From: a virus
Strand: one strand, 5' to 3'
DNA length: 37,410 nucleotides
Virus genome (UHGV): UHGV-1374559
In this document: positions 2,859-30,336 of the stretch, piece after piece
How positions within the stretch are numbered: position 1 is the stretch's first letter
Layout of the letters: each line of letters opens with the position of its first letter
Position numbers and translations under genes: made by a program
The notes under the pieces: generated by a model
Databases searched by the model: none
Told to the model about the DNA's origin: nothing
Seen by the model: the letters and a program-made list of their open reading frames with translations, nothing else

Positions 2859-3297
2859 GCGAGGAAATAAAGTCACGATTGATGGTTACACATTTGATAG
2901 CCAGAAGGAAGCTAACTTTTATACAAAGTTTGTCAAAAATTGTGGGTTACCTTTTGAGGTACACCCAAGATTTACAATACACGAGAAGTGCGAAATACCA
3001 GGAGGTAACATTTCGAGCATTGCCTATTCGCCAGATTTTATCATCAAGGACCACGATGGCAATTGGCTACATGTAATCGATATAAAAAATAGTTTTGGAG
3101 CCTATGGCATTGATCAATCAAATAAGCTTAGATTTAGACTGTTTGCCATGAAATATGGTCATCCAGTCGAGGCGGTTGTTATTAGATCAAATGATTTTAA
3201 AGTCATTACACAAGGCGTAACTAAGCCGCTTAATGAGAAAAAACCATTTATAACCGATAATTTCGATTACGAATGGAAAGATGCAACTAATTATTAA
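2833..3297 (+). CDS. DUF1064-family protein (YqaN-like putative Holliday-junction resolvase)
   Basis: Start moved to ATG 2833 (RBS AAGGGAG upstream). Motif TIDGYTFDSQKEANFY is characteristic of DUF1064/YqaN-like phage proteins (from memory). Confidence 0.5.
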   Translation: MQSPTALNKRGNKVTIDGYTFDSQKEANFYTKFVKNCGLPFEVHPRFTIHEKCEIPGGNISSIAYSPDFIIKDHDGNWLHVIDIKNSFGAYGIDQSNKLRFRLFAMKYGHPVEAVVIRSNDFKVITQGVTKPLNEKKPFITDNFDYEWKDATNY

Positions 3298-3316: not shown

Positions 3317-3922
3317 ATGACAAAACAAGTAAATTTTAGACCAGAAGTGAAAAAAGTGACATCTAAATCAAACGGAAATATCGAAGTGCTATTAGTGGTT
3401 AGCAACGCTTCATTAAAAGGAAAATATGAAAGTTTAAACGAATTTTTAGGCAAAACAGTATCAACGACCATTGAGCCAGAAACAGTAGAATACAAGGTAC
3501 CAGTTAACAAGCAGACCAATAAGCCGAATGTCGAATATGTTGTAAATAACGACGGGACAGTTGAAGTTCTAAAAGAAGAACAAACTTCTTTAGAAATGGG
3601 CGATGATGTGCAAGAAGTCGAAGAAGTTGCTGTGCAAGTATCGAAAGAAACCATTGACGAATTCATAAAGAAAGCAACGACTATCGAATGGCCAGAATCA
3701 GTAACAATCAACGTTCGTGGCGTATTGCATCGAATAGATGAAGGGGAAGCGCTAGAAGAAATTGCGTCTGATCATGATGTTTCAGTTGAAAATCTAATCA
3801 ACCAAGTTGAACTTGCACGCCAACATTTTGCACCGTTTGCAGATTCTTGGAGCAAAAACAAAGAGAACATCATTTTCCCTGAAAAGACAGTTGAAGATGA
3901 TGAAGAAGAAATCGAAGAATAA
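3317..3922 (+). CDS. hypothetical acidic phage protein
   Basis: ORF with a very acidic C-terminus (EDDEEEIEE). No motifs recognised. Confidence 0.45.
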   Translation: MTKQVNFRPEVKKVTSKSNGNIEVLLVVSNASLKGKYESLNEFLGKTVSTTIEPETVEYKVPVNKQTNKPNVEYVVNNDGTVEVLKEEQTSLEMGDDVQEVEEVAVQVSKETIDEFIKKATTIEWPESVTINVRGVLHRIDEGEALEEIASDHDVSVENLINQVELARQHFAPFADSWSKNKENIIFPEKTVEDDEEEIEE

Positions 3923-4315: not shown

Positions 4316-4594
4316 TTAAGTTTTAAGAGACTTAAACCAGTTCCTGATAATATCTATAATTAATCCCAGAGAAAAATATGAAATAAAATGAATTAAAGAT
4401 GAACTAAACATTCTTACAGAATAAGGTTGATTCATATAAAATTCATCTAACTTAGGGGATTTGATAAGCAGATTCGTGCCTATAAAATCTGTAATAGCAA
4501 ATAGGAATCCCTTATTGTCATAACCACTAACCCAAGTAGTTATAACGATAAGACTGAACAAGCTTAATAGAATAGTGAATAAATACTTTTTCAT
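4316..4594 (-). CDS. small membrane protein (two predicted TM segments), reverse-oriented moron-like gene
   Basis: Strong RBS AAGGAG 8 nt upstream of the minus-strand ATG. Hydrophobic N- and C-terminal segments. Opposite orientation to all flanking genes. Confidence 0.5.
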   Translation of the reverse strand: MKKYLFTILLSLFSLIVITTWVSGYDNKGFLFAITDFIGTNLLIKSPKLDEFYMNQPYSVRMFSSSLIHFISYFSLGLIIDIIRNWFKSLKT

Positions 4595-4660
4595 TTCACA
4601 GGCTCCTTACAAATTCCGTTAATTATTCTAGAGAGATACATTTATAGTATATGGAAATGG

Positions 4661-4685
4661 AATTTAAGACAACAAAAAAGCCGGA
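4661..4685 (-). terminator. hairpin GCCGGA-ttcc-TCCGGC followed by a U-run on the minus strand
   Basis: Stem 4670-4675 / 4680-4685. The A5 run 4665-4669 on the plus strand is a T-run on the minus strand. Confidence 0.4.
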
Positions 4686-4748
4686 TTCCTCCGGCTGTTG
4701 GTAATATTCTCGACACGAATATTATACCATAAACGGGGGAATCAAAGA

Positions 4749-5216
4749 ATGGTACTTTTTGACGTAAAGAAATATGAAACACCAGATGCAAAGGATGTAG
4801 ACATGGAACAAACGAAACATAACGTCAGTGTATTCTTGTCTGCGTACCTTGCTGCTAGATGTCGTGTTGGCCAGCCGAGGGAACCAAAAGTAACAGCTTC
4901 ATTCTCTTTGGTTCCACCATCAACGGCCAATAACGTTTTCGAAGCCGAACAAATGTTAATCCAGAAAGAAGAAGCACAAGAAGAGTTTGATTATCTTCAT
5001 AAGCTTTTTGTTAGAGGTTATTCTGCGATTCAGCATCCGCACAAACCAGATGTTACCGAGCGAAGAAAGAGAATCTTCTATGACCGTTATATCAACGGCA
5101 ATCCGATCTATCTAGCAGCGCAACGGAATTGCATCAGCGAAGAATCAGTGAAACAAGAATCTAATATGATTATTGTTCAATTTGCTTCGGCACTGGAACT
5201 GGTTGCTTTTAAGTAG
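4749..5216 (+). CDS. ArpU-family phage late transcriptional regulator
   Basis: Start moved to ATG 4749 (RBS GGGGGA upstream). Motif …VFLSAYLAARCRVGQP… and the position just upstream of the packaging module are typical of ArpU-like regulators in Firmicute siphoviruses. Confidence 0.55.
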   Translation: MVLFDVKKYETPDAKDVDMEQTKHNVSVFLSAYLAARCRVGQPREPKVTASFSLVPPSTANNVFEAEQMLIQKEEAQEEFDYLHKLFVRGYSAIQHPHKPDVTERRKRIFYDRYINGNPIYLAAQRNCISEESVKQESNMIIVQFASALELVAFK

Positions 5217-5517: not shown

Positions 5518-5589
5518 TGGAGCATAGCTTAATCGGTAGAGCAGCGATCTCCAAAACCGTTAGTATAGGTTCGAGTCCTATTGTTCCAG
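5518..5589 (+). tRNA. tRNA-Trp (CCA anticodon)-like gene, no encoded CCA end, one A·C mismatch in the anticodon stem
   Basis: Folded by hand: acceptor TGGAGCA/TGTTCCA; D-arm GCTT-AATCGGTA-GAGC; anticodon arm GCGAT-CTCCAAA-ACCGT; variable loop TAGT; T-arm ATAGG-TTCGAGT-CCTAT; discriminator G. Closely parallels Bacillus-type tRNA-Trp. Confidence 0.5.
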
Positions 5590-5770: not shown

Positions 5771-6952
5771 ATGATGAATATACAATACATTGGATTCAAT
5801 GAAGAAAATTTCGCAAGTGATATTATTACTTGTTCATCTATCCTAAGTCCAAAAGATTTTGATGATTATGATTTAAACTTTATAGATTTGGATAGTGAAG
5901 AATTATGGTCTGTACTAGAAAATAGCTTCTATCAATACGGAACGAAATATGCTAACGATTTTGTAACAATTCGCAAATTGATAGATAACTCTAAACAGAA
6001 TTTAGTAATTTCATTACCTAAGAATCAAATCTATCAATACGGATTAAAAGATTATCTTGAAAAAGTTCATAAGGGCATCGATTTATTATCTGGTATTACT
6101 ATTGAGCTAATGTATGGTGCAACTCAAACTAAGGTCAATAAAGGAACACTTAGCTCTGATTTTACAATTATGAATGATTCGACTTATTATAGCACGTTAA
6201 CCCAATCTATTAGGAGTAAAAAAGCTACTACAATAAACAGTGGTAATATCTTCGTGACAACACTAAGCATAAACAATTCAAAAGAACTAATGGATTTTTT
6301 AACTGAATTAAGATTAATCAAAAGTAAAACTGAAGAGATCCCAGAATGGATGGGGGAGGTTAAGATGTTCGATGACGTTAAACAGCTTGAAACTATTCAA
6401 ATGACAAAACAAGAAATATCTGATCTTGAAGATAGAATAGAGAAGGCTGAAACACAATTGAATGAGAATAAACGGATGAAATCTATTTTATATACTCAGT
6501 CTGATGAATTGGTTGAAGTTGTTTTTGAAATATTCAAAGAAATGCTAAATGTTGATTTATCAAGATTTGAAGATAAGAAAAAAGAAGATATTTCATTTTC
6601 TATAGGGAATAATGTTTTTATTGGAGAGATAAAAGGTAAAACAAGCAATGTAAAAACGTCTTTTTTATCTCAATTAGATAATCATTTCACGAATTTTATA
6701 GAAGACCATCCAGAAATCCCGGAAGAAAATATCTATAAATTGTTAATTATTAATCATCAAAGGAATAAAGCATTAAGCGAAAGAGATCCGGTGGATCAAA
6801 AACAGATTGATATTGCTAAAGGGAAATATGGCTCTCTTATTATAGAAACAAGTGAACTATTAAAATTATTAGAAAAGTATAGGGAAAATAATCTTTCTAG
6901 GGAAACAATTGCTGAATTGATTACGCAAAAAGGATTATTGAAAGTGGAATAA
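5771..6952 (+). CDS. standalone coiled-coil protein with C-terminal PD-(D/E)XK-like motif (candidate defence nuclease; moron)
   Basis: RBS GAGG 6 nt before ATG 5771. AT-rich. Central heptad-like region (…QEISDLEDRIEKAETQLNENKRMK…). C-terminus has D(ISFSIGNNVFIG)EIKGK then QLDNH, matching D…ExK…Q. Own terminator at 7006..7036. Confidence 0.45.
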   Translation: MMNIQYIGFNEENFASDIITCSSILSPKDFDDYDLNFIDLDSEELWSVLENSFYQYGTKYANDFVTIRKLIDNSKQNLVISLPKNQIYQYGLKDYLEKVHKGIDLLSGITIELMYGATQTKVNKGTLSSDFTIMNDSTYYSTLTQSIRSKKATTINSGNIFVTTLSINNSKELMDFLTELRLIKSKTEEIPEWMGEVKMFDDVKQLETIQMTKQEISDLEDRIEKAETQLNENKRMKSILYTQSDELVEVVFEIFKEMLNVDLSRFEDKKKEDISFSIGNNVFIGEIKGKTSNVKTSFLSQLDNHFTNFIEDHPEIPEENIYKLLIINHQRNKALSERDPVDQKQIDIAKGKYGSLIIETSELLKLLEKYRENNLSRETIAELITQKGLLKVE

Positions 6953-7420: not shown

Positions 7421-7735
7421 ATGAGTAAAAAAGAACAGATTAAAAAACAGCAGGCACAGTTCTTAGAGATCATGAAGAAGGTTCGTGAGGAGAAAGATAT
7501 AGATGCGCTTGCAGAATTGTTTATTGAAATCATTTCGGTATATGGGCTGAAGATGGATGAGACATCAGCATTACTTTATTACGTTCAGAAAGAAACACTT
7601 GAAGCAGATCACAATGCACAGTTCTTAAAAGAACGATTGAAACTTGATGTTAAGTCGCTAGGTATTGAAGGTGTGCTGCAAGTACAACGTGCGTTGGTTA
7701 ACACTTACCTTTCTAATATTGCCAACAATGATTGA
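7421..7735 (+). CDS. hypothetical phage protein
   Basis: RBS GAGGTGA upstream. No motifs. Confidence 0.45.
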   Translation: MSKKEQIKKQQAQFLEIMKKVREEKDIDALAELFIEIISVYGLKMDETSALLYYVQKETLEADHNAQFLKERLKLDVKSLGIEGVLQVQRALVNTYLSNIANND

Positions 7736-8039
7736 TGTATCATCCAAACAAGCACGAGCAAAGTTCTATGGCTCATCAGAGTGGAGAAGATTAAGACAGC
7801 AATGTTTAGAGCGTGATCATTACGAATGCCAGTGGTGCAAACAAGAAGGTAAGTTAACAACCCAGTATGATTCTATTCTTGAAGTGGATCACATTAAAGA
7901 GTTGGAACATTATCCGCAGCATGCCTTGAATATAGACAACCTAAGAACATTGTGCAAGGACTGTCATAATAAACGGCACGGTAGATTTAACTATAGAGAA
8001 TCGAAAAGAAAAAGAAAGTGGGATGATGAATGGTGGTAG
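7728..8039 (+). CDS. HNH endonuclease (terminase-associated)
   Basis: Start moved to in-frame ATG 7728. Motifs …CQWCK…EVDHI…CKDCHNKRHG…. Position immediately upstream of terS/terL as in cos-type siphoviruses. Confidence 0.7.
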   Translation: MIDVSSKQARAKFYGSSEWRRLRQQCLERDHYECQWCKQEGKLTTQYDSILEVDHIKELEHYPQHALNIDNLRTLCKDCHNKRHGRFNYRESKRKRKWDDEWW

Positions 8040-12503: not shown

Positions 12504-13649
12504 ATGACAATCAATTTAAAAGGAATGGTCAATTATCAAGAAAAGCGTAAAGCTTTTATTGAATCTGTAAAAAATGGTGATCCACAGGAAAAACAAAATG
12601 AATTATACGAAGTATCTATGAATGCTTTAGCAGAAGACATGGTAGCAGAGGCTAAAAAAGAAGCTCGTATGGAAGCAGAAGAATTTATCAATGCTTCAAA
12701 AATGGATAAAGGCATTACGCCTAAAGAAGTTAAATTCTTTAACGCAGTCACTGAAACAGGCTGGAAAGATGAAGAACTACTTCCTGAAACAACAGTGGAT
12801 GAAATTTTTAATGATTTAACAAGAGAACGTCCATTATTAAAAGAATTAGGCTTAAAGTACACAGGTTTACGCTTGAAAATCTTAAAATCTGATCCAAAAG
12901 GTGCCATTGTTTGGGGTAAAATTTTCGGCGAAATTAAAGGTCAGTTAGATGCAACCTTCAGCGAAGACGATGCAAAACAAAGCAAAGCAACAGCATTTGT
13001 AGTATTACCAAACGATCTATTAGAATATGGTCCTGTTTGGATTAAACGTTATGTAACTACTCAAATTAAAGAGGCATTTGCTGTTGGCTTCGAAGATGCT
13101 TTCCTAAATGGCGATGGAAACGATAAGCCTATTGGTTTAACTCGTGACTTAGCAAAGGGAGCTACTTCAAACGGTGTGACTACTTATCCAGAGAAAGAAG
13201 CAGCAGGAACTTTAACTTTTGCCGATGAAAAAACAGCGATTAAAGAATTAAAAGAAATGCGTAAATACCATTCTGTTAAAGAAAATGGCAAACGTATTTC
13301 TGTCGCTGGGAAAGTAGTTATTGTTGCGAGCCCGGATGAAGCTTTGGATATTGAAACAGAGTTTACTTCTCGTAATGCAATGGGGGACTGGGTTACGAAA
13401 TTACCTTTTGGATTGCGGATTGTGGAATCTGATTTCCAAAAATCTGGAAAAGTTACCACTTTTGTTAGTGGTCGTTACGATGCATTTGCTGCAGGAGCAT
13501 TAGTGATCAAAGAATACGATCAAACATTAGCTTTAGAAGATTGTCGTTTATTCACTGCAAAACAATTTGCGTTTGGTAAAGCACAAGACAACAAAGTTGC
13601 AGCTGTATGGACATTATCAATTAATGGAGACCCAGAGACGGGGAAGTAG
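12504..13649 (+). CDS. major capsid protein (HK97 fold); possible -1 recoded extension to 13711
   Basis: Size and position. RBS AGGAGG. See finding on 3' recoding. Confidence 0.85.
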   Translation: MTINLKGMVNYQEKRKAFIESVKNGDPQEKQNELYEVSMNALAEDMVAEAKKEARMEAEEFINASKMDKGITPKEVKFFNAVTETGWKDEELLPETTVDEIFNDLTRERPLLKELGLKYTGLRLKILKSDPKGAIVWGKIFGEIKGQLDATFSEDDAKQSKATAFVVLPNDLLEYGPVWIKRYVTTQIKEAFAVGFEDAFLNGDGNDKPIGLTRDLAKGATSNGVTTYPEKEAAGTLTFADEKTAIKELKEMRKYHSVKENGKRISVAGKVVIVASPDEALDIETEFTSRNAMGDWVTKLPFGLRIVESDFQKSGKVTTFVSGRYDAFAAGALVIKEYDQTLALEDCRLFTAKQFAFGKAQDNKVAAVWTLSINGDPETGK

Positions 13650-13726
13650 CAATCCCCGTGATTGAAAAAGTCACGCCAACAACAGACGGGGCTGTTGTAA
13701 ATCTGAAATAACAGGGGAGGGATTCA

Positions 13727-15206: not shown

Positions 15207-15800
15207 ATGCAAACATACGGATTTAGCAGAATCACTATTCAACAATTGGACAATGAATTAAAGCCAGTCGCTGGTAAGAAACATGTCATTGATGGCAAGC
15301 CAAAAGAAGGGGCCGCAGCAAGCTTTGAAATTACAGGACTAACCAAAGAACCGTCAAAAGTTTTCGGTTCAAACATTGCATATTACGTGGCACGTAAAGG
15401 GCACGGAGATATTGCAGCAAACTTAGGTATCTTAGATGTACCATCAGCCATTGAACATGAAATGTTAGGGCATAAAAAAGCTAGCGAGGAAAGCAAAGTT
15501 TATCATATTGGCGAGGATACAGAACCACCTTACTACGCAGTATTAATCGAATCAGAAGATTTATATGGTGAAAAACTTGGCTTCGGCATGTATGCAGGCA
15601 CATTCTCATTAGATGGTGTCAAAGGCGAAACATTAAATGATGACGACTTTACACCAGAGCCTGGCGAATATGTTTATTCTGCTGTTTCTCGTCAAATTAA
15701 CGGTAAAAAAGTTACTGTCGGTTTTGCAGATAATTCAGAAGCTCTAGCAGAATTGACAACAGAATTATTTGGTGAAGAAACACCAGCGCCGGAAAAGTAG
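15207..15800 (+). CDS. major tail protein; possible -1 recoded extension to 15862
   Basis: RBS AGGAGG. Position before the chaperones and tape measure. See finding. Confidence 0.7.
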   Translation: MQTYGFSRITIQQLDNELKPVAGKKHVIDGKPKEGAAASFEITGLTKEPSKVFGSNIAYYVARKGHGDIAANLGILDVPSAIEHEMLGHKKASEESKVYHIGEDTEPPYYAVLIESEDLYGEKLGFGMYAGTFSLDGVKGETLNDDDFTPEPGEYVYSAVSRQINGKKVTVGFADNSEALAELTTELFGEETPAPEK

Positions 15801-15873
15801 CAAGCCCCACAGTGGGAGCTGTTACTCCCACCACAGATGGGGCCAATATTGAATTAAGTTAGGAGGACAAGAA

Positions 15874-16347
15874 ATGTCGTTTATTCCACCAGAAAAATTT
15901 AGACTTTATAAAAAAGGTGAAACTAATCCTGTTGCAGAAGGTGTTTCACCTTTAGCTATTACAGGAATTGCCGCAAATACGGATGTTTTAGCAGGTGACT
16001 TTACTGTCACAGGCGTTGCCACCGTTGACGGTGTAGAAAAAGAATCTGATCATGTCGATGTACCAGCGTTTAAAACACTACCTATTGCAGTAACAGGAAT
16101 TACCTTGGATAAGACTGAATTAGCTTTAAAAGTTGGTGAAACAGCAACTTTAACACCTACAATCATGCCAGAAAACGCAACAAACAAAGTATACAGTTTC
16201 AGTTCTGAAGATACAGCGATCGGAACAGTAACGCCTGTACAGGGAAAAGTAAAAGGAGTTGCGGAAGGTGTTACAAAAATTGTTGGCACAACTGAGGACG
16301 GTAATTTTACAGCAGAATGCACTTTGACTGTATCAGCAGCAGAATAA
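15874..16347 (+). CDS. Ig-like (Big_2) domain protein, tail-associated
   Basis: RBS AGGAGG. C-terminal …TGITLDKTELALKVGETATLTPTI…VTKIVGTTEDGNFTAECTLTV… is a Big_2-type Ig-like fold signature. Confidence 0.55.
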   Translation: MSFIPPEKFRLYKKGETNPVAEGVSPLAITGIAANTDVLAGDFTVTGVATVDGVEKESDHVDVPAFKTLPIAVTGITLDKTELALKVGETATLTPTIMPENATNKVYSFSSEDTAIGTVTPVQGKVKGVAEGVTKIVGTTEDGNFTAECTLTVSAAE

Positions 16348-16403: not shown

Positions 16404-16751
16404 ATGGAACGCAAGATTGAACTTACTTTACGTATTGATGGCGAAGAAAAAACTTTTACACAGGACTTTGTGCCGTTTTCTAAGCGTACAGACTATATAA
16501 AAAAAGAAAATTCACTTAGAGAAGAAAAAACAAGCAAAGGATTAGAACCAACAGCTGACGAGTATTTAGAAATGCAAATTCAATTCGTCGCCGATTTATT
16601 CGATGAAAAGGAACTTACTAAAGAAGCAATCCTTAACGGTATGGATGCTTTAGACATTGACGAAATATGGGAAATTATCAGCTATCGAGTTCTAGGCCTG
16701 TCTAAGACAGATGTGGAAGAGTCAAAAAAGGAAGAGGCGGAGGAAATCTAA
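16404..16751 (+). CDS. tail assembly chaperone (gpG-like)
   Basis: RBS GGAGG. Acidic. Immediately upstream of the tape measure. Contains the slippery heptamer A_AAA_AAG at 16724-16730 in frame. Confidence 0.6.
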   Translation: MERKIELTLRIDGEEKTFTQDFVPFSKRTDYIKKENSLREEKTSKGLEPTADEYLEMQIQFVADLFDEKELTKEAILNGMDALDIDEIWEIISYRVLGLSKTDVEESKKEEAEEI

Positions 16752-16954
16752 GTTGGTCTGAATTTTATGACCTGCAGATTGGTTTTGTCCGTGATTCAGT
16801 TACAGAACTTGGGTGGACGATTCGGGATTTCATGAATACTGATTGCTTGGATATTGATGAAATTTTATTGAAGGCACCAAAGAACAAGAAAACTAAAAAG
16901 AAAAAACAAGAGGTGCGACCATTAAGTGAATTAGTCAAGCGTGGTGGTGCATAA
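16724..16954 (+). CDS. -1 frameshift extension of the tail assembly chaperone (gpGT-like product, 16404..16954 via slip at A_AAA_AAG)
   Basis: Open -1 frame from the heptamer to TAA 16952-16954, encoding …SWSEFYDLQIGFVRD…KNKKTKKKKQEVRPLSELVKRGGA. The gap between chaperone and tape measure has no other start/RBS. Confidence 0.5.
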   Translation, partial: KKGRGGGNLSWSEFYDLQIGFVRDSVTELGWTIRDFMNTDCLDIDEILLKAPKNKKTKKKKQEVRPLSELVKRGGA

Positions 16955-30264: not shown

Positions 30265-30336
30265 GAACTATTGGTTCAGTTGGTTAGAGCCAACCGCTCA
30301 TAGCGGTTAGGTACAGTTCGAGTCCTGTATGGTCCA
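30265..30336 (+). tRNA. tRNA-like sequence, CAT anticodon (Met/Ile2-type), degenerate (T-arm one base short, A·C in acceptor): probable attP core / tRNA 3' remnant
   Basis: Hand fold: acceptor GAACTAT/ATGGTCC with 6/7 pairs; D-arm GTTC-AGTTGGTTA-GAGC; anticodon arm AACCG-CTCATAG-CGGTT; TTCGAGT T-loop but 5' T-stem lacks one G. Lies adjacent to the integrase region. Confidence 0.4.

Follow-up and report, generated by a model that had tools for sequence, protein, structure and literature searches.

Frameshifting that adds immunoglobulin-like (Ig-like) domains to the heads and tails of phages has long been known, phage T3 being one instance. Phages A2, PSA, A118 and A500 recode both their capsid and their tail genes at the 3' end to yield a minor long form, and Ig-like extensions of this kind are indifferent to +1, -1 or in-frame decoding (PMC5009743). 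In A2 the products gp5B and gp10B gain Big_2 domains by -1 shifts, and in SPP1 a +1 frameshift at CCC-TAA adds a fibronectin type III (FN3) domain to the tail tube, giving gp17.1*. Here we analyse the 3' end of the major tail protein (MTP) gene in virus genome UHGV-1374559, from which a stretch of 37,410 nucleotides (hereafter the window) was studied. At this gene end, and again at the end of the capsid gene, the -1 frame encodes a short C-terminal peptide that we call the tag, and the gene following that of the tail protein opens with a module that we call the anchor. On our best reading, drawn from sequence homology and structure prediction, the tag corresponds to strands A-B and the anchor to strands C-G of one FN3 domain split in its B-C loop, the appended piece being in this instance half a domain. 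What is new here is that a recoded half-domain stands on head and tail alike and the other half on a separate cargo-bearing protein, the frameshift itself having precedents in A2, PSA and SPP1 and, as a proposal, in phiEf11.

A homologous capsid extension of 21 residues has already been proposed for phiEf11 (PMC5221750). Stevens et al. (2016) found two major-head bands, of 38-39 and 41-43 kDa, in virions and proposed for ORF10 a -1 shift at AAAAAAA by which 21 residues are added, their stem-loop being put at -20.1 kcal/mol (PMC5221750). ORF10 resembles the capsid cassette of the window in that its slip site abuts TAG, a hairpin follows and the 21-residue tag, IEAPKVESVIPTTDGASIVLS, is a member of the same family, whereas its heptamer is A_AAA_AAA and those of the window are G_GAA_AAG and G_GGG_AAG. 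Its authors treated the capsid event as an isolated one; the in-frame tag on the tail-tube protein went unnoticed, and no link to ORF16 or to an FN3 domain was drawn. The SPP1 extension is homologous to tag plus anchor; it is, however, a full FN3 domain of 87 residues, covalently attached and confined to the tail tube, whereas here only strands A-B are appended, the remaining strands belong to another protein and the capsid bears a tag too. The capsid genes of A118 and A500 end in G_GGA_AAC-TAA, the same slip-plus-stop layout, and -1 shifting has been reported for them (PMC5009743). With both structural genes recoded in A2, PSA, A118 and A500, the sequence-only reading of this DNA, made before our analysis, overstated its case in calling the arrangement unusual. 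The extensions of A2, PSA, A118 and A500 differ from the tag in being complete domains (Big_2, or HeH in A118 and A500) of 53-90 residues that are not the same in the two genes, and they include neither a tag common to both genes nor an anchor encoded apart, the tag and anchor profiles scoring below 5 bits in A118 and A500. As side observations on these two phages, the capsid genes end at 3083 and 3060, where the -1 frame adds a HeH-type peptide of 53 residues annotated as a separate open reading frame (ORF), and the tail genes end at 5182 and 5162 in AAA-CCC-TGA, where the +1 frame adds a Big_2 domain.

The elements of the two cassettes and of the anchor gene in the window are as follows.

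12504-13649, + strand: major capsid protein gene (HK97 fold), TAG at 13647-13649; Pfam PF05065, E = 3.5e-14
13640-13649, + strand: capsid slip site G_GGG_AAG-TAG, the gene ending acg ggg aag TAG
13646-13711, + strand: capsid -1 tag ORF, VAIPVIEKVTPTTDGAVVNLK and stop; from translation and a match to the tag hidden Markov model (HMM)
13654-13691, + strand: capsid-tag stem CCCCGT (13654-13659)/ACGGGG (13686-13691), 7 nt past the slip site, with inner stem GTGA/TCAC
15207-15800, + strand: MTP (tail-tube) gene, 197 residues, TAG at 15798-15800; Pfam PF04630 (Phage_TTP_1), E = 1.4e-8
15791-15800, + strand: slip site G_GAA_AAG with adjoining zero-frame TAG (a 'shifty stop'), the gene ending ccg gaa aag TAG
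15797-15862, + strand: MTP -1 tag ORF, VASPTVGAVTPTTDGANIELS and TAG; from translation, a tag HMM match and coding periodicity; predicted FN3 strands A and B
15804-15843, + strand: two-stem RNA hairpin, a putative frameshift stimulator; outer stem GCCCCA (15804-15809)/TGGGGC (15838-15843), inner stem GTGGGA (15812-15817)/TCCCAC (15826-15831)
15861-15866, + strand: Shine-Dalgarno (SD) sequence AGGAGG of the next gene, overlapping the MTP tag stop (TAGGAGG, 15860-15866)
15874-16083, + strand: anchor module, residues 1-70 of ORF 15874-16347; predicted FN3 strands C-G, with A-B absent
16087-16347, + strand: Big_2 Ig-like domain (residues 72-150) with C-terminus and stop, the putative displayed cargo; Pfam PF02368, E = 6e-15

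In the MTP cassette the -1 frame runs from GTA (15797) to AGT (15859), comprises 21 sense codons that open GTA GCA AGC CCC, and closes at TAG 15860-15862; the anchor ORF begins 11 nt past this stop. The sequence-only reading had described the gene end, stop, frame and stems with coordinates that proved exact in every case, and the -1 recoding that it had proposed for this gene end is supported by the anatomy and by conservation across loci. Its count of 12 residues of 21 identical between the MTP and capsid tags is borne out by the translations, and in the codons of the shared VTPTTDGA all differences between the two window copies lie in third positions, of which 6 of 8 are changed. The MTP tag contains no basic residue and is preceded by ...APEK, and the capsid counterparts are VAIPVIEK and VTPTTDGAVVNLK. 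The capsid tag lies 2.2 kb upstream of the anchor gene, next to a head-tail connector gene and not to an anchor. Zero-frame readthrough and +1 reading of both cassettes were rejected, as the resulting peptides are unconserved and meet early stops. An open -1 frame of 21 codons is not significant on its own, about 0.2 being expected by chance in AT-rich DNA by our estimate, and the case for the tag is made by its conservation and not by the length of the open frame.

To this end we collected 151 loci (56 fetched via the tail protein and about 90 via the downstream protein, plus reference phages) and ran a 21-column tag HMM on their six-frame translations with a cut-off of 10 bits. The scores were bimodal, with 263 matches at or above the cut-off, every one of them on the gene strand and 262 ending at a stop codon; exactly two fell in the window. 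The -1 ORF, which the sequence-only reading had left for comparison with relatives, is hence conserved in them. Over 71 distinct nucleotide versions, the first, second and third codon positions of the tag frame had entropies of 0.80, 0.73 and 1.52, the third thus being about twice as variable as the other two. Frame calls, made relative to an upstream ORF of at least 90 residues, placed 256 of the 263 tags in the -1 frame, two in +1 and five in frame; the two +1 tags, at CCC-TAG, are those of SANTOR1, and the five in-frame tags belong to MTPs of the phiEf11 type, which differ by a 1-nt indel from their frameshifting relatives. Heptamers abutting TAA or TAG in the -1 class were G_GGA_AAG, G_GGG_GAG, G_GGG_AAG, G_GAA_AAG, A_AAA_AAA, G_GGA_AAC and G_GGA_AAA, and the tag is also reached from A_AAA_AAG one codon ahead of the zero-frame stop and from C_CCA_AAA, the heptamer of phage A2, five codons ahead of it. 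This variety of decoding routes shows that it is the peptide on which selection acts.

Tags were found on at least three unrelated major-head PHROGs (840, 544 and 10) and on three major-tail PHROGs (820, 88 and 238). Prophages of Enterococcus faecalis with three capsid types, respectively 100%, 57% and 35% identical to that of the window, are all tagged, and the tag keeps a fixed length of 21 codons in phages of Enterococcus, Vagococcus, Oceanobacillus, Virgibacillus, Siminovitchia and Atopostipes. The -1 ORF is under protein-coding selection by the codon-position entropy, the stops that close 262 of 263 matches and the unrelated genes that host it, and selection on the peptide, as claimed in the sequence-only reading, finds its support in that entropy, in the multiple decoding routes and in the unrelated hosts. 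We consider it very probable that the tag is translated, and hold with equally high confidence that the recoding cassette is real, conserved and coding, with a frameshift of an already known type.

Some individual records are of interest in their own right. The tags were unannotated in every record inspected. In phiEf11 (GQ452243) the MTP at 4386-4979 carries the tag in frame (...VDSPSVESVTPTFDGASTELS, then stop), and its relatives need a -1 shift at G_GGA_AAG-TAG. In the Efquatrovirus SANTOR1 (KX284704) both capsid and tail genes end in CCC-TAG and the +1 frame provides the tag STPPVVGQVT..TSATIELS (3558-3630 and 5927-5999), a CCC-stop +1 site like those of PSA and SPP1. Locus L040 (3560-3653) has a tail gene 85% identical to that of the window in which the stop TAG has become TTA and the zero frame runs four codons longer (EKLQAPQ, then stop); its -1 tag, VTSPTVGTITPTTDGATIEMF, is intact, and VKRPTIGTITPTTDGANVELT is the tag of its capsid gene, which is 57% identical. 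The heptamers that lie one or five codons ahead of the stop were met in L115, L116 and L119 (about 7690-7756) and in L064 (about 12950-13035).

Tags and anchors were distributed over the 151 loci as follows.

Anchor present, two tags: 127 loci
Anchor present, one tag (five cut short, four full-length): 9 loci
Anchor present, no tag (myovirus L063): 1 locus
Anchor absent, no tag: 14 loci

Paired tags thus occur only where one particular downstream gene exists, in keeping with the function shared by capsid and tail that the sequence-only reading had suggested. Among the 14 loci that lack an anchor are some with a distant relative of the window MTP, where intrinsic terminators follow the tail-tube gene, and two Atopostipes loci have a single tag each.

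The anchor family comprises 244 clusters at 50% identity with a consensus of about 65 residues, M..F[KR]IYKG..V.EG.SPL.ITG..PNTDV.AG.Y....V.G..ES..VD[IV]PAFKTLP. In 128 of 148 cluster representatives the module starts within the first 12 residues, that is, at the B-C loop. The cargo that follows it in homologues is Big_2, He_PIG, PF20622, two Ig domains or nothing, and anchor proteins are widely mislabelled 'major tail protein', as is the anchor of SANTOR1 (3689-3910), a protein of 73 residues with no Ig cargo. The anchor/Big_2 protein of the window is 91% identical to P0005, which is named Listeria monocytogenes (345 member sequences, 79 contigs); either the module has spread across genera or those assemblies are mislabelled.

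The ATG of the anchor lies 4-18 nt past the stop of one tag in all lineages, and 58 nt past it in SANTOR1. The adjoining tag is that of the tail gene in Enterococcus and Vagococcus and that of the capsid gene in SPP1-like Bacillaceae prophages and Efquatrovirus. This strict adjacency we count as a feature that the split-domain reading does not explain. The gaps between tag stop and anchor occur in all three frames and every anchor has its own SD sequence, from which it follows that the anchor is a separate polypeptide. Since a single anchor gene faces tags on two virion proteins, complementation in trans explains the arrangement and simple fusion does not.

Examination of the homology and predicted fold of the two pieces suggests what the sequence-only reading had missed, namely that an FN3 domain is divided between the tag and the next ORF, with one half in each. 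A profile of tag plus anchor aligned with the experimentally known FN3 extension of SPP1 gp17.1* over HMM positions 4-85 of 87 (20 bits; E = 3e-8, for one comparison), the corresponding segments being TATTDSVTVKW/TPTTDGATIEL, YNVYRG/FKIYKG and LTGIQPDT/ITGIAPNT, with KTLP in both. A search of 1.84 billion representatives also found unsplit homologues (P0185, P0213 and P0143) in which a tag-like segment stands directly ahead of the module; P0185 reads TSPTLTELTPTKDGFTVKLT-GSNEDS-TFRIYDK...SAFKTLPISV-Big_2 and scores 78 bits over positions 2-87. AlphaFold2 (AF2), given a fusion of tag and anchor with an alignment, reached a predicted local distance difference test score (pLDDT) of 89 and a predicted template modelling score of 0.73, with the tag as two strands at pLDDT 87-92; on the single fused sequence with no alignment pLDDT was 52. 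Foldseek was concordant with FN3 on both PDB and BFVD, its best viral matches being an SPP1-like major tail protein of 264 residues and anchor-only 'structural proteins' of 70-92 residues. A seven-strand sandwich of FN3 topology with homology to a known FN3 domain is accordingly indicated by AF2, Foldseek and SPP1, and a partner with exactly the missing strands by the anchors that begin at the B-C loop, the contiguous homologues and the co-occurrence. A complete, autonomous Ig-like or FN3 extension the tag is not, as it has 21 residues and strands A-B only (about 85-90 residues in A2 and 87 in SPP1). Recoding at the 3' end is indicated by the anatomy of both the capsid and the tail-tube gene, and a long isoform would be its product.

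In the case of the slip site, AAG re-pairs perfectly on AAA in the MTP cassette and the P-site codon mismatches in moving from GAA to GGA, which makes the sequence near-canonical; close natural variants carry the canonical G_GGA_AAG. Heptamers of the form X_XXY_YYZ occur in 21 of the 71 distinct tags and the remainder are G/A-rich near-matches. A purine-rich heptamer directly abuts TAA or TAG in 67 of 71 standard-register tags, and the other four have A_AAA_AAG one codon earlier. Because the heptamer abuts the zero-frame stop, the first codon of the tag is GTA, ATA or CTA. As the simplest common model we propose a -1 slip of the tRNA on the last codon (AAG, GAG, AAA or AAC) onto the overlapping purine codon with the stop in the A site, canonical tandem slippage being possible where the heptamer permits it.

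Both an adjoining stop and a structure within 5-9 nt accompany the site, the support for the structure across lineages being moderate. The two-stem hairpin of the MTP cassette, 6 nt past the heptamer, is the minimum-free-energy fold (-22.1 kcal/mol, z = -2.68, with 3 of 200 shuffles as good). The capsid segment 13640-13699 folds at -22.8 kcal/mol (z = -3.3), the C-run pairing in free RNA with the G-run of the slip site and not in the stem listed above, and the phiEf11 capsid hairpin folds at -19.9 kcal/mol (z = -5.75). In place of a consensus structure we counted pairing in the named structure and tested codon usage. Over 36 lineages 70% of cells are paired in the stems derived from the window, where slid controls reach 32-47%, and covariation is modest, with 3 of 500 shuffles reaching the observed score. 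The codon of Gly15 is GGG in 62 of 71 tags compared with 11% in background genes, and that of Pro4 is CCC in 26 of 65 tags compared with 4.8%, a bias whose significance is overstated by the phylogenetic non-independence of the tag sequences. The codons of V-V-G (GTN GTN GG) and P-T-T (CC NAC NAC) are reverse complementary and form the inner stem in several lineages (15812-15817/15826-15831 in the window), so that peptide and hairpin constrain each other. Selection on RNA structure, the second half of the claim made in the sequence-only reading, is supported by the GGG and CCC codon bias and by the hairpin's distance from the slip site. Its statement that the stems differ by compensatory changes stands in part: there is one true swap of G-C to A-T between the window copies, together with the modest covariation, and RNAalifold yields no single consensus. 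We conclude that the hairpin is probably a frameshift stimulator.

Placing these results into one model, a fraction of the ribosomes that have decoded AAG, with TAG in the A site, would slip one base back, from AAG to AAA, in the cassette at 15791-15862. The slip would be favoured by the purine run G_GAA_AAG, by a stop that is slow to decode and by the two-stem hairpin 6 nt downstream. Shifted ribosomes would read GTA, add 21 residues and stop at 15860-15862, and the sister cassette at the capsid gene (13640-13711) would act likewise. Tag (A-B) and anchor (C-G) would then rebuild one FN3 fold across two polypeptides. The Ig-like protein would thereby be caught by those capsid and tail-tube subunits that bear a tag, and its copy number on head and tail would depend on how often ribosomes shift. 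From the anatomy, conservation, coding selection, co-occurrence, homology to unsplit FN3 proteins and predicted fold observed in this analysis we infer that the shift occurs, at some rate, and that tag and anchor bind. Taken as a whole, recoding and docking together, we regard this explanation as reasonably probable. That the tag docks the anchor protein, with fragment complementation as the best-supported mechanism, we hold with moderate confidence on the evidence of sequence comparison and predicted structure.

Complementation of Ig-like folds by a donor strand or fragment is familiar from the subunits of chaperone-usher pili and, in engineered form, from SpyTag/SpyCatcher and split FN3 monobodies. 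The likeness lies in an Ig-like or FN3 fold that wants its N-terminal strands and would be completed by another polypeptide, for an attachment both specific and stable; the difference is that the donor here would be a two-strand hairpin made by frameshifting on virion proteins. Covalent isopeptide capture was considered and rejected, since some lineages have Asn, Thr, Ser or Glu in place of the tag Asp and no reactive residue is conserved, and since the gel of phiEf11 shows the tagged tail protein at 28-30 kDa and not at about 38 kDa, that is, with no adduct of +16 kDa. The tail protein of phiEf11 does run at 28-30 kDa instead of 21.5 kDa, an anomalous migration (PMC5221750). The end result would probably be the same as for T4 Hoc, which is bound non-covalently, and for the C-terminus of lambda gpV, namely display of Ig-like domains with, probably, weak carbohydrate adhesion. 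The in-frame Ig-like domain of lambda gpV is attributed to Fraser et al. 2006 as cited in PMC5009743 and PMC5221750. A recoded half-domain socket common to head and tail is, in contrast, undescribed for those proteins. The literature searched, a scope that left out most papers in subscription journals, yielded no account of a split FN3 domain or of a shared tag; a cryo-EM paper on Brochothrix NF5 proved unrelated to the tag-anchor system.

Several results weigh against this reading. With regard to the fold, the AF2 model is of an artificial fusion in which the tag columns are covered by two sequences only, and the five models span pLDDT 89 to 57. Pfam has no family for the anchor or for tag-anchor fusions even at E <= 10, and a profile search of PDB sequences returned a chance match only (E = 1.6); as Pfam gives no match, the FN3 assignment is based on the predicted structure together with homology to SPP1 and the unsplit proteins. 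With regard to recoding, the MTP heptamer of the window is non-canonical in its P-site mismatch, and the capsid heptamer G_GGG_AAG needs AAG to re-pair on GAA. Locus L040 keeps its tag with TTA where the adjoining stop would be, which means that this stop is not indispensable. Some lineages give weak hairpin z-scores (-0.9 and -1.3), the stems overlap the conserved Pro and Gly codons, and RNAalifold found no consensus structure in 36 tags, because the inner stems shift position between lineages. The extension peptides of phiEf11 went undetected by mass spectrometry, its two head-protein bands being indirect evidence of a trans-frame product, and its authors call the idea speculative (PMC5221750); the absence of a basic residue from the MTP tag may be the reason that they were missed. 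Finally, the Staphylococcus myovirus vB_SscM-1 (KX171212) has no tag in about 76 kb (1-64 and 108-121 kb) that include the ends of its capsid, sheath and tube genes. The anchor-like ORFs of this member of the Herelleviridae (L063, L152 and L153 among our loci) are two, gp153, which includes a Big_2 domain, and gp154, and they lie near its holin and DNA-polymerase genes.

The alternative that survives best holds that the tag is translated and acts by itself, either as a C-terminal arm that stabilises the lattice or as the decaying remnant of a full FN3 extension, the downstream ORF being attached in some other way. Short frameshift extensions with no domain do exist, 10B of T7 being described as not Ig-like (PMC5009743), and the anchor-like ORFs of vB_SscM-1 with no detectable tags, as well as L071 and L072 with one tag only, are what such a view would allow. 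It fares poorly, however, with the co-occurrence of tag and anchor (both in 136 loci, neither in 14, an anchor with no tag in one), with anchors that start where the B-C loop would be and with contiguous homologues in which the two pieces are one domain, and purifying selection with a constant 21 codons across the phages of six host genera is not what a remnant would retain. We judge it rather unlikely. A good deal less likely still is a device for translational coupling, in which shifted ribosomes would end on the next SD sequence and re-initiate, thereby tuning production of the Ig-like protein, with the peptide incidental: the tag stop does overlap the SD sequence (TAGGAGG) and the anchor ATG follows a tag stop closely at 4-18 nt, but in each genome a second tag is not next to the anchor gene, as with the window capsid tag 2.2 kb away, the peptide is under strong amino-acid selection, and in-frame versions involve no shift at all.

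Two further ideas have next to nothing in their favour as probabilities. That the conserved 70 nt are a never-translated RNA or DNA element (a duplicated terminator, an RNase site or a regulatory hairpin) would suit GC-rich hairpins placed directly after two highly expressed genes and the intrinsic terminators that distant relatives have after the tail-tube gene, but no T-run follows the stems, three-base periodicity with free third positions is evident, the same peptide is encoded elsewhere in +1 or in frame by different nucleotides, and no Rfam family is present here. Fusion of the tag to the downstream ORF by a further recoding event, giving a continuous tail-tube-FN3-Big_2 protein as in SPP1 gp17.1*, might be thought of given two pieces 11 nt apart that together make a full domain, but was rejected on the gaps in all three frames, and it is opposed as well by the strong SD sequence and ATG of the ORF, the lack of a slippery sequence at the tag end, the capsid tag that is followed by a head-tail connector gene and no anchor, and the finding of the anchor-only protein of vB_EfaS-271 (predicted 7 kDa) in virions; that protein, gp11, labelled 'major tail protein', was identified by virion mass spectrometry with 94% coverage (PMC7503890).

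The window itself belongs to an Enterococcus faecalis siphophage or prophage: fragments of IME_EF3 are 93-98% identical to it, and for the lysis genes the matches are to phiFL and EFP1 phages. The late operon runs portal, ClpP-type protease, HK97-fold capsid, four head-tail genes, MTP, the 157-residue Big_2 protein, tail chaperone and tape measure, and tblastn matches of the MTP carry the annotation 'major tail protein'. The tail-chaperone gene (16404-16953) has an A_AAA_AAG -1 slippery site at 16724-16730, from which the -1 ORF reaches TAA near 16953; this is the usual shift of the G/GT type and brings the recoding sites of the late operon to three. An Rfam search found no family at the cassette and only two tRNAs, listed here.

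5518-5589: tRNA-Trp (CCA)
30265-30336: tRNA-Met (CAT)

As neither of these is a suppressor, suppression of TAG was ruled out as an explanation for decoding past the stop.

If the split-domain reading is true, it would explain why the same short recoded tail is found on two unrelated structural genes, and why ORFs labelled 'second major tail protein' or 'Ig domain protein' open abruptly with F-K-I-Y-K. A tag of 21 residues and a catcher of 65 would moreover make a display or cargo system for phages of Enterococcus, Listeria or Bacillus. Recoding would acquire a quantitative role in setting the number of sockets per virion, and mosaic phages could keep their decorations while swapping capsid and tail modules. 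In such a scenario, which we think somewhat likelier to hold than to fail, many phages of the Bacillota would possess a natural, non-covalent tag-catcher based on a split FN3 domain, with an A-B hairpin that is tunable through -1, +1 or in-frame decoding, a swappable cargo and one decoration gene serving both head and tail.

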